The translations under genes and the position numbers were made by a program. This document shows, in pieces, positions 11,865 through 26,348 of a DNA stretch of 36,296 nucleotides. The DNA is from Basidiobolus ranarum (taxonomy: Eukaryota). Within the stretch, counting starts at the first letter, position 1; the number at the start of each line of letters is the position of its first letter. The notes under the pieces are model-generated. The model did not search any database and was not told the DNA's origin. It worked only from the letters and a program-made list of their open reading frames with translations. Location: positions 1 to 36,296 of the forward strand of contig JASJQH010006934.1 in NCBI GenBank assembly GCA_040143965.1, given 5' to 3'.

Positions 11865-12878
11865 ATGAAGATGCTGATACCTTTGGTGAATTGGATCCTA
11901 TTACCATTAAGTGTCCTTCAGGTTGTTCAGTCCAATTTCACTTGCCCTTCGATCAATATACGAAAAGAGATTAGACAACTAGCCCCTAAGGATCTGGATG
12001 AGGTATTCCGAGTGATTGAGATATTACGAAATAATGGCGAATATGATAATATGATGGACCTATTCTACAAAAATGTTCAGGAGCGTGCTCTATCTCCCTC
12101 ACTATTTCCATGGCAACGGATTTTTCTGAAGAAATTGGAACTTGGAATGCAAAGAATTTCGCCCAACATTACTCTACCATATTGGGTAATGACAATATTT
12201 CCACTCCATTCCTTTCTCAAATCATAAAATGGCTAACATTCGAGTTGAAACTTAGGACTGGTCATTAGAAGTGAAAATTCCAGATCGTAGCACAATGTTA
12301 AGGTTATTCCAAAAAAAGTCAAATCCTGTTTGTATAGGAACATCGAGTGAGCGGAGTCCATTAGTGAGTAGGAAATCCCCTTGCTTAGACCTCAAAGTTC
12401 AAGATCCTATTCGCTTCTTTTCACCTGAGTTTTTGGTATTTTTCCTTGGGAAATATCCCACGTTTGAAGAATTCCATAAAAGACTGGAACTTTTGAATGC
12501 TAAAATCCATATGGAGCTACAGAATATGGCTGGGAATCGGATTCAGCTGAGAGAGTAAGTGGCATACCAAATACTGAATGACAACGATCTCTCAATACTA
12601 ACAGCTTGCTTAGTCCAATCAATCTGTTTCAAGCAGCATTCATGGATAAACTCTATGCCACTTGGCAAGAGTTGCACCCAAAAGCAGTCTACAACGAGAC
12701 AAATTCGAAAGTAGAAACCAAAGTGACACCACAAGCCTCTCAATCGGCACTTGTTAGTTTAGACTCCAAAGCCACCAACACCGCCGACCTGTGCTTTGAG
12801 TACTCCAAAGTGAACCATTCACTCTCCAAGTCACGGATTAAATTGATGAAGGACTCGTTCGGTTCACCAAAATATTAA
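11865..12878 (+). CDS. Secreted tyrosinase-fold protein lacking most copper-binding histidines (probable pseudo-enzyme)
   Basis: Exons 11865-12185, 12256-12554 and 12605-12878 splice in frame. Signal peptide present. IRKEIRQL, LFPWQR, LPYW|DWS, AFMDKLYATWQ and LCFEYS align with the tyrosinase at 15090-16408. Confidence 0.82.
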
Positions 12879-12934: not shown

Positions 12935-13935
12935 TCATTCTTTACTCGCTTCAGCATTCTTTTGTAAACGAAGCTTGTAGGGTGGTGTCATTAATTTACA
13001 ATTCGGTTTAAATATACAACCGTCTTCATGCATACGTTGGACAATTCTCACGATATTCTTGGTATCGTCAATGCCTGAATGCTCTCTACCCTCAAATACT
13101 AAATCCAACTGGGTTAACATCCCATTGAGATTCCGTCTGTCACATTTGTAGAATCTTTCGAATAGTTTACGCAAATCTATCCAAGGTCTAGAGAAATAGT
13201 TAGGTCTGATGATATGAGAATGGTCATATTGCTTTTCAATAAAATCTCGAATATCGTATGGACCATCAGTGATGAAGAGACATTTTTTCGCTTTGAATAG
13301 GGAATAATGATTCATCCATCGTTCAAAGTCCAGAATTACCACATCAAAGGGGTCACTTCTATCGACTATATCCTATAAAAAGATAGTTGAGTCTTGGGGG
13401 CATGTGGAATTCAATAAACTGCCAGTAATCTCGGTACCTGGGTGATTCCAGTCAGATTGATGCAATACTCGGATAGGATTGGTTGTTTAACAGGCCTGAC
13501 GTAACGATGGAAAATATCCACCTAGCAATGTGTAAGTTTTGACGGGCTTTTGGATTTCAACATATAGAAACATACTATTTGAAAATTAGAGTCCAAGAGT
13601 ATCATGGGGAACTCAATGATTTCATTCAAGAAGTCAAAGGTCACTCCAGCTATACATGTAGCTTCTACGTCAAAGCACAGGTAATAGTCGGTTGGTCGAA
13701 AGCTGAAAGAATGTTAGATAGTTTCTTTTGAATATGAATCCTTAGAAGCTCACTATTTCTTCGGAGTGATCGCTTTTGTAACTGCAACTTCACCCACCTC
13801 AGTGGTAGGCTTTTTCTTGGACTTCTTTTTCGTTTTCTTCTTCTGACCCTCTGTATCAATAGCTAGCTCCGTCAATTGATTTGTTATGGCATCCTCAGTG
13901 AGGATCGCATCGTTGGTGGTACTTGATGATTCCAT
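12935..13935 (-). CDS. ERI-family DEDDh 3'-5' exoribonuclease (ERI1/2/3-like, no SAP domain seen)
   Basis: Spliced YYLCFDVEATC...EIIEFPMILLD, FHRYVRPVKQPILSEYCINLTGITQ, FITDGPYDIRDF, FEGREHSGIDDTKNI. Three introns and a Lys-rich N-terminus. Confidence 0.92.
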
Positions 13936-14152
13936 AGTGGAGAGAGGAAATGTGCCGATGCATTTCTAGCTCAGTTATATAGCTGAAAGTAAAATTCAAT
14001 TCGCACATGTAATTCAATAAAATTAGGATCATTGATATATATATACATTATCGATTTATTTACATTTTACAAATATATTCATTAGAATACCACAAAGTGC
14101 CTAAAGTGGGAAACATCATTAGATATAGTGACAGATGTAGGCGAGACAACGA

Positions 14153-14243
14153 TTATTTCAGATCATTTTTCTTATCACCAAGCAACTCTTTTGGTTGCTT
14201 TATACGAGCTGGGTTAAATAGCAAAATGATTTCATCACACAAT
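14153..14243 (-). ncRNA. Box C/D snoRNA, snR69-like (copy in intron 3)
   Basis: C box GTGATGA (14238-14232), guide AACCCAGCTC antisense to LSU rRNA GAGCUGGGUU, hairpin, C' TGATAA, D box CTGA (14161-14158). Flanked by the inverted repeat GACAACGAT/ATCGTTGTC. Confidence 0.85.
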
Positions 14244-14386
14244 ATTATCGTTGTCATCGGAGAGCGGAACATTAGAGGTGAACACTTACCACAAAACTTG
14301 TGTAATCCGGTACATGTAACCTGCTAAATTGAAACGCGTTTAGAAGAAGCACAAAAAGTAGATGGTTGTGTATAGAACAGTTCCAT

Positions 14387-14479
14387 TGATTTCAGATAAC
14401 TTTTGATATCATAAAGCAATTCTTTTTGAAATGCTTTATACGAGCTGGGTTAAATAGCAAAAAGTATTCATCATTTTAG
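14387..14479 (-). ncRNA. Box C/D snoRNA, snR69-like (copy in intron 2)
   Basis: C box ATGATGA (14474-14468), identical 30-nt core (14433-14462), hairpin ATAAAGCA...TGCTTTAT, C' TGATAT, D box CTGA (14395-14392). Confidence 0.85.
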
Positions 14480-14604
14480 GAAGCGATTCTTTCAAAGATA
14501 AATTAACTTACCAGTGATACGGAGTCAGACTCAATAAGATGTCCTAACAAGTAACGTTGGAGTAAGTATAAGTGTAACCAGATGGATTCTTATAGAAGAG
14601 TTGT

Positions 14605-14696
14605 AGAGTTCAGAGTGAATTTTATATCACAAAGCTCATCTTTTTGATGGCTTTATACGAGCTGGGTTAAATAGCAAAAATATTTCATCATACTAA
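14605..14696 (-). ncRNA. Box C/D snoRNA, snR69-like (copy in intron 1)
   Basis: C box ATGATGA (14691-14685), identical 30-nt core (14650-14679), hairpin, C' TGATAT, D box CTGA (14613-14610). Confidence 0.85.
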
Positions 14697-15089
14697 TGGG
14701 GGCTTTCTTTGAAAGTGGATGGAATACTTACTATTTGACTACCGATGAGAGGCTGAAGGAGAGATGGTGTAAACTTACGGTGAAGCGGTGCCTTTATGTG
14801 CTTACGCCCCTTGTCATACTAAATCTTTTTTTTCCAAGCTACTCTACTAAGCAAGGGTAAGTTAAAATCATCGATATTTACCCTGCTTTCGTGAATTTTT
14901 TTCGTACCATTTCAATTGGCTACAGGGTATTCATCCTAGTATCTCAAACTTTGGTCTAGGTTCCACCTAGTTAGGTACACACAATCATGAAATGTATTAT
15001 AGTTTAATAATCTAATGTTGAATTCTTCAATTATAAATGCTAGAGAATGAACATAGATAGATGCATGCAATGAGTAGCTTCAGTGATAA

Positions 15090-16408
15090 TTAGAAGTTCG
15101 ATATTCTGGAATCAGATATTTCCGTAAATAAGGAACCTAATGTTCCGCGAACTAGTTTAGTTAGAGTTTCTAAACGTCTTGCGAGTGCATTTGGTGAAAT
15201 ATAATCCTCTAGTAGGTTGAGTTCTTGAATAATTCCTTCAAGTTGGCGTTCTTTCGAGCGGGTTTCTTCCAAGTTACCTCCATTTAGTTGAACCCAGTTC
15301 GGGTCAAGTTTCTCTGGAATGTGAAGCTTGAGCGCTTCAGCACCCTTCATCAATGTTTCGGCCGGATTGAAGTTTGGTATCGCTCTTCTATTGTTTCGAG
15401 TTGTTCGAGGCGAGTTACTATAGCGGTAACAAAGACCGGGCGATGAGGTATCCAAAACTGCCGATACGGTGACGTTGAACGGATTCATTACATCAGTTGG
15501 AAGTGCATTTCCTCCATTGGTACGTTTTCCGTTGTATTCTCGGGACCGACTTTGTTCGGTTGCTTGCCAATCCGCCCAAATTTTGTCCACGAAAGCGTGA
15601 TGCAACCAGAAAAGCGGACTAAGTTTCGACAATAAGTTAGAGGAGGAACTCTAATCAAGTAAACACCTTTATTCGATGACTACTTACTCATTTGGACTGG
15701 TCATGACCGTCATATCCCCTCCAATGCCCATATGAACAACACCATGAATTGGACTCTCCAATTGGCTTCGAAAGTCTGCGTAAGTTCGTGATTTACTTGC
15801 TATCCTGCTGATAACATCACTAGAGTAAAAAGAGCCGATCTTTCCTTGGCGATTGAATTTTCTGGATAAGCAGTGAGGCTTGGGATATCTCATCCGCCAT
15901 CCAGCGAAGGGCCCGTTGGTGATACAGCCTCCATTGCCACCATCACCACCTAGATAGTTTTCATTGAATATTTCACTTTGATGAGGGCTTTGTGAGTCAA
16001 TTGTCCAATCCTATTTATGAATGCAATATGAGTAATTTAGCGAATATAGAATTTGCGTGGGAGGGACTTTACCCAGTACGGTAACACCACTCTAGGGTTG
16101 ATTCTCTGAAGTTTCTTTTCCAACTCACGTAGATATTGACGGTGCCAAGGGAAAAAAGCAGATCCGCTATGGACCTCTCCTGCGTAATTCGAATGGATCT
16201 GAGACAAAGCATCGTACGCGCTGACCGATTGTGATGAAGCATGAAGTGTTTTCAAAGCGTCAAAAAATTCATTCCGTTCACTTACGCTCAACTGACGAAT
16301 TTCTCGTCGAATAGAGATCGATCCACATCCTTGCCCACTCACAAATTCTAATGTTGCAGTGAGTAGTACAACGGCAAAGAGGAACCAAAGTAATTTCTGG
16401 GGGAACAT
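15090..16408 (-). CDS. Secreted tyrosinase (type-3 di-copper protein)
   Basis: Exons 16408-16073, 16010-15688 and 15618-15090. Signal peptide. CuA ligands in SQIH, EVH and FFPWHR; CuB ligands in ESPIHGVVH and SPND|PLFWLHHAFVDKIWADWQ; LCYRY motif. Confidence 0.95.
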
Positions 16409-24034: not shown

Positions 24035-24682
24035 GAGAACCTACTCAAAAAAAAGCTATCCTGCGAAAACTGCGAAAATCAAAGTAATGTACAGATTGCG
24101 TGCTTTGCGTAATCAGAGTGGCTTTCGGTATTATCACTAGCACTTTAGGCATTCTAGGCACATATATTCATAACTAAATCGGTTTTCCAAGAAGCTGGTT
24201 CCATGTTACATGTTTCTTTGGCACGTATAATTTTTACCATTATTATCGCCCGTTCCAAATTGGAGTAATAGCCTAACTTTTGCTTACGATGGCGACATTT
24301 CTAGCACCTAATATTTATATCAATGGGTATTTTAAAAATGTTTTCCCAAATAAGATTTCTCTTCCAAATTAGACTTCATTTCCGAAATAGCTCAGAATGG
24401 GGATGGCCCTGATGTTACATAACATCAGTATCAATTGGATAAGAGCTGAAATGCAATCTGTGGTGTAGATAGAAATCTGAGTTCTGAGCACTTATCTACT
24501 TTTGGAGAATGTTATGCTTTACACAAATGATGCCATCGAGAGTGATGATTCTGACATTAGGGCTGCTGAGAAATCAAGAAGTTACCGAATCCCATATAAA
24601 CTGTGAATCTTGTCTCATTCAATTCACATTTCCGATCTCTCTCTTCATTAGTTACTTAGATATCATAGACTATATACCCTCA

Positions 24683-26348
24683 ATGTCGAACAAGGTTAGT
24701 ATTCGTGGAATTTGGTGATAGCTTCATCTCAAATGTTAATCTATTTTCTCAGAATTTTGCAGCGTCGCAAGACAACCACATCGATAAGTACGATGTCACC
24801 GAAAAAAGCATCGAAGATGTAGAGCACAGACCTAAAGATACGTTAAAGCGTGCTCTTACCGCTAGACAGGTCCAAATGATCGCCATTGGCGGTACTATTG
24901 GCACCGGTCTCTTTCTTGGCACAGGAAAATCTCTGAGTACTGGTGGTCCGGGTAGCATGTTGATTGCTTATGCAATCATTGGTGTTATTGTATACTTCAC
25001 CATGATATCGCTGGGTGAAATGGCTACTTACATCCCTGTTGCCGGTTCTTTTAACACATATGCCAACCGCTTTGTTGATGAAGGCTTAGGCTTTGCTCTT
25101 ACTTGGAATTACTGGTTCAATGATGCGGTGAGTGTTGCTTCCGATCTAACCGCCGCTCAAATAATTTTGAATTATTGGAATGTTGATTTTCCTGGATGGG
25201 CTATCTCGCTTATTTTCCTTGTTTTCCTGGTTTCCATTAATGCGATAGACGTTAGATTCTACGGCGAGATAGAGTACTGGCTATCTCTACTCAAAGTCAT
25301 CACCATCATTCTATTTATTATCATTGGTATTTGCGTTAACCTTGGCGCCAATAAGGGGTACGGATATATTGGCTTTCAATATTGGACACTTGGAGATGCG
25401 CCTTTTGTCGGTGGTATTGGTGGATTTGCATCTGTGTTTGTCACTGCAGCATTCGCTTATGGTGGCACTGAATCAATCGGTATCACTGCCGGTGAAACAA
25501 AAAACCCTAGAAAGAATGTACCCAAAGTTATTCGCAACGTTTTCTGGAGAATTTTAATGTTCTACATTATGAGCATTTTTGTCATCGGTCTCGACGTCCC
25601 TTACAACGCGGAGAATTTGACCGAAAAGAATTCCAGAGATTCTCCTTTTACTTTAGTCTTCAAGATGACTGGTTTCGAGGTTGCTCCTTCCTTCATTAAT
25701 GCTGTTGTGCTTACTTCAGTTATTTCTGCTGGTAATCATGCTCTGTTTGCTGGTACTAGACTTCTTCACACTCTTGGAGAACAAGGACATGCCCCTAAGT
25801 TTTTTACCAAGCTTACTAAGAATCGTGTACCCATCTATTCGTTGCTCGCTACTGCTGCTATTTCTTGTGTGTGCTTTGCTTCCTCCTACGTTGGTAGCGG
25901 TGCTCTTTGGAATTGGTTGCAGAATTTAGTAGGTGTATCTAACCAGATGAGTTGGATTGCCATTGGTGTCACTTCTTATCGTTTCCGTAAAGCCTATGAA
26001 ATCCAAGGAAAAGACCTGAATGAGCTACCCTTCAAGAGTCCATTGTATCCATATGGACCCATATTCGTTGTTGTTGCTAATAGCATTCTGGTTTTGGTTC
26101 AAGGATGGAGTTCATTCAAATCTTCCCCCACTGGTGGCTTTGACTTTGTCACATTTCTCTCATTCTATATTCAAATTCCATTCATGGCTGTCATGTGGCT
26201 AGGATGGAAGTTCTTTAAAGGCACTAAGGTTGCCAAATACGAGGATATGGATCTCGATACAGATAGGTATTACGATACTGCAGAAGATCTTCGTGATAAT
26301 GAGAAAGGAGATGGATTTATCCAGCGCGCTCTCCACTATTTCTTCTAG
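24683..26348 (+). CDS. Amino-acid permease (APC superfamily, YAT family)
   Basis: LKRALTARQVQMIAIGGTIGTGLFLGTG, FYGEIEYW, FAYGGTE...AGETKNP and ~12 TM segments. The likely true start is ATG 24683 (MSNK), with intron 24695-24752 joining the long ORF in frame. Confidence 0.96.

Follow-up and report, generated by a model that had tools for sequence, protein, structure and literature searches.

Three probable snR69-like box C/D snoRNA genes in tandem candidate introns of Basidiobolus ranarum

Results

Location of the array and absence of coding potential

The stretch of Basidiobolus ranarum DNA analysed here (the window, 36,296 nt) contains a tyrosinase gene and an ERI1-like exonuclease gene and, between them on the minus strand, an array of what are very probably three genuine box C/D snoRNA genes, together with a putative host (14040-14860). 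A paralogous tyrosinase-exonuclease region lies on a 31,871-nt contig. As the locus tags of the two flanking genes are consecutive, nothing is annotated between them, which agrees with an initial reading of the sequence (the first-pass annotation) in which the locus was described as invisible to annotation based on open reading frames.

The array is marked by a 30-nt core that recurs exactly at 14197, 14433 and 14650 (plus-strand positions), whereas no occurrence was expected in the 36,296 nt on the basis of 100 shuffles. Allowing up to three mismatches revealed no further match to this core in the window. The block spans the guide and the D' box and is identical in all three copies; the 11 nt lying 5' of the guide and the stretch UUUUGCUAUUU are also conserved among them, while flanking sequences score at about the level of shuffled DNA, so that the pattern first reported, of an exact core with diverged flanks, was borne out. 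Tandem Repeats Finder reported nothing over the array, because the likeness between units is now confined to the snoRNA bodies. We looked for a fourth, decayed copy upstream (15090-14779) and downstream (14100-13936) of the array, where local alignment scores were at shuffle level, and an exact 28-mer scan of metagenome contigs gave zero matches.

The first-pass annotation had named a conserved protein-coding frame over the repeats as something that would refute it; neither a reading frame conserved among copies nor a Pfam match was found over the array. Stops are abundant in all six frames, ruling out a protein-coding reading of the repeats, and the longest ATG-started open reading frame in the spliced host exons has 14 codons. 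On the plus strand, a stop-free run of 104 aa (14013-14327) was discarded, as it lacks a usable start and matches no Pfam family below E 0.2.

Anatomy of the three copies

All three copies lie on the minus strand between RUGAUGA and CUGA boxes, as originally proposed, with a 10-nt guide and a UGAUA motif in between, and measure 81-83 nt from the start of the C box to the end of the D box. Each was delineated from its box motifs, from sub-threshold Rfam matches and from matches to model R1 (see below). Copy A (14610-14691, 82 nt) has its C box, ATGATGA, at 14691-14685, the guide AACCCAGCTC at 14668-14659, C' (TGATA) at 14629-14625 and D (CTGA) at 14613-14610, with a putative D' box, UAUA, and a putative internal hairpin. 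In copy B (14392-14474, 83 nt) the corresponding elements are ATGATGA at 14474-14468, AACCCAGCTC at 14451-14442, TGATA at 14411-14407 and CTGA at 14395-14392, and in copy C (14158-14238, 81 nt) they are GTGATGA at 14238-14232, AACCCAGCTC at 14215-14206, TGATA at 14177-14173 and CTGA at 14161-14158.

The C' box reads (R)UGAUA in every copy. The D' box, whose position follows from alignment with the Rfam models, is UAUA and so departs from the consensus in the absence of GA; on the D' side, all copies share the guide sequence ...UUGCUAUUUAACCCAGCUCG-UAUA. A hairpin is predicted between D' and C' in each of the three, with compensatory changes at two of its 15 predicted pairs. A 9-bp external stem is predicted around copy C (14145-14255), in which GACAACGAU (14255-14247) pairs with AUCGUUGUC (14153-14145); the fold of this copy (14262-14140) has a predicted energy of −27.6 kcal/mol (z −3.25), matched by none of 200 shuffles. 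For copy B an interrupted external stem joining the flanks is predicted, and for copy A no terminal or external stem was predicted, only 3 bp being paired by eye.

Family identity

The guide 10-mer AACCCAGCUC is identical to the guide of the Rfam snR69 consensus and to that of two loci that reach the snR69 gathering cutoff. Afu_304 has CCCAGCUCGU in common with the guide of the copies, whose D' register aligns with the UCGA of both snR69 and Afu_304. A UGCUAU element 5' of the guide is present in the window copies, in the snR69 consensus and in metagenomic relatives, while Afu_304 has a similar stretch, UGCUCGAUAU.

The Rfam comparison suggested by the first-pass annotation yielded no family at gathering scores, and a search of the whole window at E ≤ 0.5 listed nothing. 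In a 1-kb search, sub-threshold matches were confined to snR69 and Afu_304: snR69 (RF00475) scored 22.7 bits for copy C, 18.8 for copy B and 18.4 for copy A, short of the gathering cutoff of 50, and Afu_304 (RF01511) scored 22.9 bits for copy A and 19.9 for copy B, short of its cutoff of 35, with copy C unlisted. The Rfam snR69 model looks narrow, however: when it was used to scan 13 of 16 metagenomic loci (the other three, exact duplicates, being left out), just two of the 13 reached the gathering score, although six more (L004, L008, L012, L013, L014 and L015) share the same architecture by eye.

We also used R1, a profile built from eight metagenomic relatives with the window's own copies excluded. 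R1 matched copy A at 30.4 bits (E 5.3e-9), copy B at 30.5 bits (E 5e-9) and copy C at 27.8 bits (E 3.5e-8), scores that are in part circular because the relatives were retrieved with a pattern (C box, GCTAT, ACCCAGCTC) drawn from the window copies. The next best among 33 listed matches had an E of 0.86, leaving no other significant site in the window. With boxes, guide and internal hairpin present and R1 matching exactly these three sites, the initial identification as snR69-like C/D snoRNAs is upheld, and the best interpretation of the three copies is that they are paralogues belonging to the snR69 / Afu-304 / Nc-CD27 type of box C/D snoRNA gene.

Predicted rRNA target

The guide of the copies is presumably complementary to large-subunit rRNA, in a duplex that we judge to comprise only ten Watson-Crick pairs, which counts against the assignment. 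Each snoRNP would then guide 2'-O-methylation to a large-subunit cytidine of the peptidyl-transferase region, the equivalent of yeast C2948, which is also the predicted target of snR69, Afu-304 and CD27 in the accounts available (PMC8053091, PMC2377427, PMC2780460). The adenosine two positions upstream (A2946 in yeast) may be a second or alternative site, since the D' box is degenerate.

In yeast, snR69 directs Cm2948 and snR71 directs Am2946 through overlapping pairings, and the site that overlaps that of snR71 is reported to be methylated sub-stoichiometrically (PMC8053091). Afu-304 has been cloned, runs at 95 nt on Northern blots, is intronic and is a predicted guide for Cm2925 (PMC2377427). 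Neurospora CD27 is intronic too, with one guide element predicted for both sites (PMC2780460), and degenerate C'/D' motifs have been reported for snR69 itself (PMC3116282).

Candidate introns and exons

Each copy lies within a putative minus-strand intron that opens with GTAAGT, as recognised at the sequence level. Intron A (14544-14731, 188 nt) has a branch-like CTTAC about 19 nt before its AG and ends in TTAG. Intron B (14321-14511, 191 nt) has a branch-like TCTAAAC and ends in AGCAG, with an alternative AG 3 nt upstream (14325-14324). Intron C (14101-14289, 189 nt) has a branch-like CTAAT and ends in TTTAG, at an acceptor that is also used in the public model of the exonuclease gene. Across the three, CTTAC, CTAAAC and CTAAT stand 18-19 nt before the respective AG. 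The five annotated introns of the two flanking genes have similar motifs (CTAAC, CTTAC and CTCAAC), but are just 51, 54, 65, 62 and 69 nt long.

On its minus strand the window contains 18 instances of GTAAGT, four of which fall inside 14289-14778 (starts at 14731, 14511, 14289 and 14778). An exact GTAAGT stands 31-45 nt upstream of the C box in every copy; by our own arithmetic, a GTAAGT in the ~50 nt before every one of the three C boxes would arise by chance with a probability of around 1e-5. The fourth GTAAGT, at 14778, may be an alternative donor; a 26-nt intron between it and the CAG that ends at 14753 was rejected as too short.

These introns would separate a first exon (14732-14860, the 14860 boundary being arbitrary), exon 2 (14512-14543, 32 nt, non-coding), exon 3 (14290-14320, 31 nt), whose ATG opens a frame of just 14 codons if no additional intron is spliced out, and a terminal exon (14040-14100). 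In the last lies AATAAA (14060-14055), with a (TA)n run after it at ~14045-14030; alternatively, this exon may form part of a 5' leader towards the exonuclease ATG at 13935.

From the end of the D box through the terminal AG, the distance to the 3' splice site is 66 nt (A), 71 nt (B) or 57 nt (C), and from the D box to the putative branch point it is 39-52 nt. We take these distances to the 3' splice site to be within the usual range for intronic snoRNAs. In the Neurospora survey, the spacing of a snoRNA from the 3' splice site is said to matter for how efficiently intronic snoRNAs are processed (PMC2780460). The first-pass annotation had given the same picture, with GTAAGT...AG units of 188, 191 and 189 nt, non-coding spacers of 31-32 nt and D boxes 57-71 nt from the 3' splice sites, and our measurements and the lack of coding capacity in the spacers match it on each point.

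Selective conservation of snoRNA bodies and splice signals

Identity among copies is concentrated in the snoRNA bodies, which are 82-87% identical, whereas exons and intron flanks average 51-60%, against 48-53% for shuffled sequence. The donor is nevertheless exact in all three units and intron lengths remain within 188-191 nt despite the drift of the flanks. This retention of splice signals and spacing while exons and flanks drifted argues for splicing-dependent release of the snoRNAs, which we consider probable. The locus is a clean natural case in which selection has held snoRNA bodies and splice signals while leaving exons free to drift, the hallmark of a gene with introns as its product.

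Residual flank homology is limited to units A and B, with none for unit C or for any exon. The tandem triplication of an intron-exon unit proposed at first sight therefore retains support from A and B, but finds none in unit C or in the exons.

Discussion

A putative host transcript and its rivals

We propose that each snoRNA gene sits in its own intron of ~190 nt within a short Pol II transcript, from which splicing, debranching and exonucleolytic trimming would free the snoRNAs with their presumed RNA ends. The two internal exons, of 32 and 31 nt, are without coding information and would serve merely as splice-site providers, a role resembling that of the exons of UHG/GAS5-type hosts and SNORD116-type arrays. 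We favour an independent non-coding host, which would end near the AATAAA at 14060, a motif at most suggestive of a host 3' end, and in which three copies would supply a higher dose of a single guide. Taken whole—three C/D snoRNAs, spliced from their own introns in an independent non-coding host, with copy number raising dose—we hold this statement to be evenly balanced between true and false. The dedicated non-coding host of the first-pass annotation is weaker than it was claimed to be: a live rival assigns the introns to the exonuclease gene, the public model of which uses the acceptor at 14101.

Under that alternative, which is possible if on balance doubtful, the three introns sit in the 5' leader of the ERI1-like 3'-5' exonuclease gene, which would tie guide production to a protein gene, the situation of most intronic snoRNAs. 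The coding sequence begins at 13935 on the same strand, just 166 nt from the acceptor at 14101 to the ATG. The public model, P0121, has residues 3-5 at 14099-14091, and so uses the exact acceptor of intron C, followed by a further intron (14090-13966); once that intron is removed, the ATG of exon 3 opens an 82-codon frame that continues in frame into the exonuclease open reading frame. Moreover, the snoRNA has a protein-coding host in all four non-yeast metagenomic relatives with readable context, and Afu-304 and Nc CD27 are likewise described as intronic. Yet the leader would carry seven upstream ATGs unless a fourth intron is removed, and the donor of that intron, GTATTC, is poor. The first two residues of P0121 require a 14-nt 'intron', so that its N-terminal extension looks like an ab initio artefact, and the paralogue P0122 begins at the equivalent of the ATG at 13935. 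The AATAAA at 14060 and the (TA)n run downstream of it would also suit a 3' end with a distinct TATA promoter after it. The 5' end of the neighbouring exonuclease gene is thus likely to be mis-modelled.

An improbable account holds that the snoRNAs are real but reach maturity by RNase III-type and exonucleolytic processing of a polycistronic precursor or of three independent units, on the model of budding-yeast and plant clusters, the GTAAGT...AG signals being unused or incidental. Yeast and plants commonly have polycistronic C/D clusters (PMC2780460), the external stems on copies C and B are of the kind used in such processing, and metagenomic locus L011 has three near-identical snR69-like copies with a 159-nt period and one upstream GT donor-like site. 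Such an account leaves unexplained, however, why exact donors precede all three C boxes in flanks that are otherwise at shuffle level, why a branch-like motif and AG follow at near-constant spacing in units of 188, 191 and 189 nt, and why neighbouring genes use the same splice signals.

A last reading, in which the copies are decaying or functionless, or belong to a short repeat of another kind with a chance likeness to a snoRNA, is very hard to credit: the degenerate D' box and the lack of an Rfam match at gathering score would suit it, but the guide and D' block is identical three times over, boxes C, C' and D are intact amid diverged surroundings, the internal stem has compensatory changes, R1 gives E ~1e-8 per copy, and decay would not have left precisely the functional elements untouched three times over.

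Under our preferred reading, of intronic snoRNAs in a non-coding host, a genome whose annotation covers proteins only gains three snoRNA genes and a probable host transcript; a literature search found no discussion of Basidiobolus snoRNAs, the single paper to mention both being, to judge by its title, on a springtail genome. The array leaves the present understanding of snoRNA biology unchanged.

Relatives in a UAP56/SUB2 intron

In four metagenomic loci (L008, L013, L012 and L015) an snR69-like snoRNA lies in one conserved intron of UAP56/DDX39B/SUB2, which follows the ...DECDKML..G codons. These share with the window copies the guide, the UGCUAU element, the box layout and the internal hairpin, which is predicted at the same place in all four from unrelated sequences; L008 and L013 also have a degenerate D' box (UUUA). 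They differ in being single copies within a helicase gene, whereas the window copies lie between tyrosinase and exonuclease genes. Given the UAP56/SUB2 setting of these four relatives, the window locus looks relocated and amplified. No UAP56-like frame was seen in the flanking 'exons' of the window when these were read by eye against the peptides of the relatives, and a literature search for UAP56-hosted snoRNAs in fungi gave nothing usable.

A bolder scenario, which we think unlikely, is that, in this early-diverging lineage of fungi, the snR69-type guide left a widely shared site in one particular UAP56/SUB2 intron and was rebuilt as a dedicated three-intron homo-array with exons that act purely as carriers of splice sites, selected for a higher dose of a guide whose target site overlaps that of snR71 and is reported to be sub-stoichiometrically methylated in yeast (PMC8053091). 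If true, it would make the locus a fungal miniature of SNORD116-type arrays, but with a canonical rRNA guide. Together, the array and its UAP56-intron relatives make a case of relocation and gain in snoRNA copy number that can be put to the test.

Comparison with known systems

The window copies resemble yeast snR69, Afu-304 and Neurospora CD27, as these have been described, in having the predicted form of box C/D snoRNAs of ~85-105 nt with a single active guide beside D'. They depart from snR69 and Afu_304 in their D' box (UAUA rather than UCGA) and in Rfam scores far under both cutoffs. Yeast snR69 is an independent gene. Afu-304 resides in intron 2 of a protein-coding gene (PMC2377427). All three are described in these sources as single genes, unlike the three tandem copies here.

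In host organisation, the locus recalls the UHG-type hosts, such as Neurospora clusters I-V and animal UHG and GAS5, which have one snoRNA per intron, canonical splice signals and short exons without meaningful open reading frames (PMC2780460). The Neurospora and UHG hosts carry different snoRNAs in successive introns, as reported there, whereas the same guide appears three times in this array; the Neurospora hosts were confirmed by RT-PCR (PMC2780460), while this array is known from sequence alone. The exons here are also extremely short, at 31-32 nt, compared with those of UHG-type hosts. Among animal hosts, Drosophila dUHG provides a precedent.

The mammalian SNORD113, SNORD114, SNORD115 and SNORD116 arrays and rat Bsr come close in their repeated intron-exon units, with the same snoRNA family in each intron, and arrays of this type arise by tandem duplication (PMC11028025). 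Those arrays comprise tens of copies, are imprinted and encode mostly orphan guides; the present locus, from a fungus, holds a canonical rRNA guide in just three copies. Set beside these systems, the arrangement is neat but of a familiar kind: three apparently intronic copies of one guide that most likely directs a single rRNA methylation.

Structure of the repeated element

The three-copy snoRNA locus is a real feature. Its 30-nt core matches exactly at three plus-strand positions of the window (14197, 14433 and 14650), with no fourth match in the window at up to three mismatches and an expectation of 0 from 100 shuffles. On the minus strand, the three copies (A, 14691-14610; B, 14474-14392; C, 14238-14158) each begin with a C box (ATGATGA at 14691 and 14474, GTGATGA at 14238), carry AACCCAGCTC 16 nt after it and a C′-like box, TGATA, and end with a CTGA D box (14613, 14395 and 14161). 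Every copy is predicted to form a hairpin between D′ and C′, two of whose 15 pairs show compensatory changes; among the metagenomic relatives described below, four are also predicted to form a hairpin in the same place, from unrelated sequences. Copy C has an external stem of 9 bp (z −3.25), that of copy B is predicted to be interrupted and copy A shows none in the fold prediction. On re-checking, the coordinates and numbers in the first-pass annotation for repeats, boxes and units proved correct.

Family membership and predicted rRNA target

Nothing in the window matched an Rfam family at gathering scores, and a whole-window search at E ≤ 0.5 was empty; a targeted 1-kb search returned full-length sub-threshold alignments to snR69 (22.7, 18.8 and 18.4 bits; cutoff 50) and Afu_304 (22.9 and 19.9 bits; cutoff 35). 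In the Rfam alignments, the guide AACCCAGCUC agrees with the snR69 consensus at every position, while CCCAGCUCGU is common to Afu_304 and the window guide. D′ in both families is UCGA and the aligned window position reads UAUA, an alignment that makes the G pairing with the target cytidine the fifth position upstream.

On established knowledge, the window guide is predicted to pair with LSU rRNA. In yeast, snR69 directs 25S-Cm2948 and snR71 directs Am2946, with overlapping pairings (PMC8053091). Afu-304, which is intronic, was cloned, detected at 95 nt and predicted to guide Cm2925 (PMC2377427), and for the intronic Neurospora CD27 a single guide element was predicted for both sites (Cm2948 and Am2946 equivalents; PMC2780460).

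Among metagenome contigs, an exact 28-mer gave no matches and a motif pattern gave 16 loci, of which 12 (nine distinct sequences) were judged by eye to be box C/D RNAs laid out like the window copies and four, by appearance, to be chance matches. Of the 13 loci scanned with Rfam (three exact duplicates were omitted), two exceeded the gathering cutoff of snR69, with 89.5 and 53.9 bits. R1, a sequence-only model built from the distinct relatives other than L011, whose D box is ambiguous (eight of nine sequences), recovered the three window copies at E values of 5e-9, 5.3e-9 and 3.5e-8, the next best match standing at 0.86. Part of this score is circular, because the pattern that found the relatives was itself taken from the query; the match also extends over parts that this pattern left free, namely a U-rich run just ahead of UGCUAU, the region of D′, C′, the D box and the spacing. 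We conclude that the three copies are very probably box C/D snoRNA genes of the snR69/Afu-304/Nc-CD27 functional type.

All three copies share the same 11 nt, UUUUGCUAUUU, on the 5′ side of the guide (14669-14679, 14452-14462 and 14216-14226, minus strand). UGCUAU is present in most relatives; the search pattern imposed GCTAT but not the U-rich run ahead of it. This stretch presumably adds nothing to the rRNA duplex. It may make extra pairing elsewhere, of the sort described for many yeast snoRNAs (PMC3116282).

Probable introns

On the minus strand, each C box is preceded by GTAAGT at a distance of 31-45 nt (at 14731, 14511 and 14289) and each D box is followed by a putative AG acceptor at 57-71 nt, delimiting units of 188, 191 and 189 nt (14731-14544, 14511-14321 and 14289-14101) separated by spacers of 32 and 31 nt. 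Four of the 18 minus-strand GTAAGT sites in the 36,296-nt window fall inside the 490 nt of the array, and a branch-like CTTAC, CTAAAC or CTAAT sits 18-19 nt before the AG in every unit. The snoRNA bodies are 82-87% identical, while the spacer exons and the intron flanks on either side show no excess identity (mean 0.51-0.60, against 0.48-0.53 when shuffled). Alignments among units, judged against shuffles, found short colinear homology to either side of the snoRNA between units A and B (score reached by 2 of 1000 shuffles per side) and none left with unit C or among any exons. That the flanks have drifted, yet retain three exact GTAAGT donors, a branch-like motif and a near-constant unit length, argues against chance and for ongoing selection to keep splicing.

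In the two flanking genes, five introns mapped from public protein models measure 51, 54, 65, 62 and 69 nt. Their donors (GTGAGC, GTATGT, GTACCG, GTAAAG and GTAAGT) and branch motifs (CTAAC, CTTAC and CTCAAC) are of the same kinds as in the array. At 188-191 nt, the array units are roughly three times as long as this local norm, much of the excess being snoRNA. Between the D box and the putative branch point there are 39-52 nt, a range that favours assembly of intronic C/D snoRNPs. A general point on the 3′ distances of intronic snoRNAs has been made for Neurospora (PMC2780460). Summing both models of the host transcript, it is likely that the snoRNAs would be released by splicing.

A fourth minus-strand GTAAGT occurs at 14778, with CTTCAG only 26 nt on (14753-14778). 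No intron would fit in that interval, so the site may serve intron A as an alternative donor, in which case intron A would span 235 nt.

Host transcript and neighbouring genes

The array lies between a tyrosinase gene ending upstream at 15093 and an ERI1-like RNase_T exonuclease gene starting downstream at 13935, both on the same strand and with consecutive locus tags, so that no annotated gene intervenes. The proposal that the exons are non-coding held up: the longest ATG-started ORF in the spliced putative exons is 14 codons, and the array contains neither a copy-conserved reading frame nor a Pfam match. At 14060 an AATAAA precedes a (TA)n run, an arrangement compatible with a host 3′ end and then the exonuclease promoter. 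We give an independent non-coding host transcript about even chances.

A serious, though less likely, alternative is that the array forms the 5′ leader of the exonuclease gene. In P0121, the public protein model of that gene, 15 residues precede the ATG at 13935. This model places residues 3-5 at 14099-14091, before a further intron at 14090-13966, so the acceptor used is exactly that of intron C, and with 14090-13966 removed an ATG in exon 3 shares the reading frame of the exonuclease ORF. However, residues 1-2 of P0121 (291 aa, MMHFVK...) require ATGAT at 14119-14115 plus a 14-nt ‘intron’, the extra intron has a weak donor (GTATTC), and the model of the exonuclease paralogue has its start where 13935 would correspond. 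Residues 1-15 of P0121 are thus probably an ab initio prediction artefact, with the ATG at 13935 the more likely start codon.

The tyrosinase, exonuclease and amino-acid permease genes (12938-16408 and 24669-26348) have paralogues at 75%, 69% and 86% identity, all on one other contig (31,871 nt) assigned to Basidiobolus ranarum; there too the tyrosinase and exonuclease paralogues carry adjacent locus tags, which points to a duplicated segment. Tyrosinase-domain genes on opposite strands flank the locus (11865-12878, plus; 15093-16408, minus), the plus-strand gene with a weak, below-cutoff Pfam match in the tested fragment (E 0.006).

Relatives in other genomes

In four metagenomic loci (L008:1156-1240 and L013:1648-1734, minus; L012:2313-2401 and L015:401-507, plus), from evidently different organisms (GC 0.36-0.49), an snR69-like C/D snoRNA occupies one shared intron of a UAP56/DDX39B/SUB2 helicase gene, between ...HFVLDECDKML..G and DMR(R/K)DVQ.IF.... 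The L013 helicase was named by PDB sequence search (DDX39B, 3e-103) and the others by eye from near-identical peptides. L008 and L013 have a degenerate D′, UUUA, akin to that of the window. This looks like a deeply conserved host association, on which our literature search found nothing. The window array, in contrast, lies outside any such helicase gene, and looks like a relocated and amplified version of the UAP56-intron snoRNA.

L011:4913-5390 (plus) holds three near-identical snR69-like copies with a 159-nt period and a single donor-like site, GTGAGT, just upstream of the first. It looks like a polycistronic tandem array, so the snR69-type guide has been amplified elsewhere too, in polycistronic form. 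Another C-box-like ATGATGA lies farther upstream.

Comparison with known systems

A full-text literature search returned no paper evidently on snoRNAs of the Basidiobolus lineage. The three-copy locus is a good annotation catch, of a kind of arrangement already known. In fungi, C/D snoRNAs encoded in introns are documented, as are UHG-like non-coding hosts in which each intron carries one snoRNA (PMC2780460). In mammals, SNORD113-116 and Bsr are arrays of tandem intron-exon units, each built on a single snoRNA family and housed in a non-coding host (PMC11028025). As read from sequence, the Basidiobolus locus would join features of both, on a small scale and with a canonical rRNA guide.
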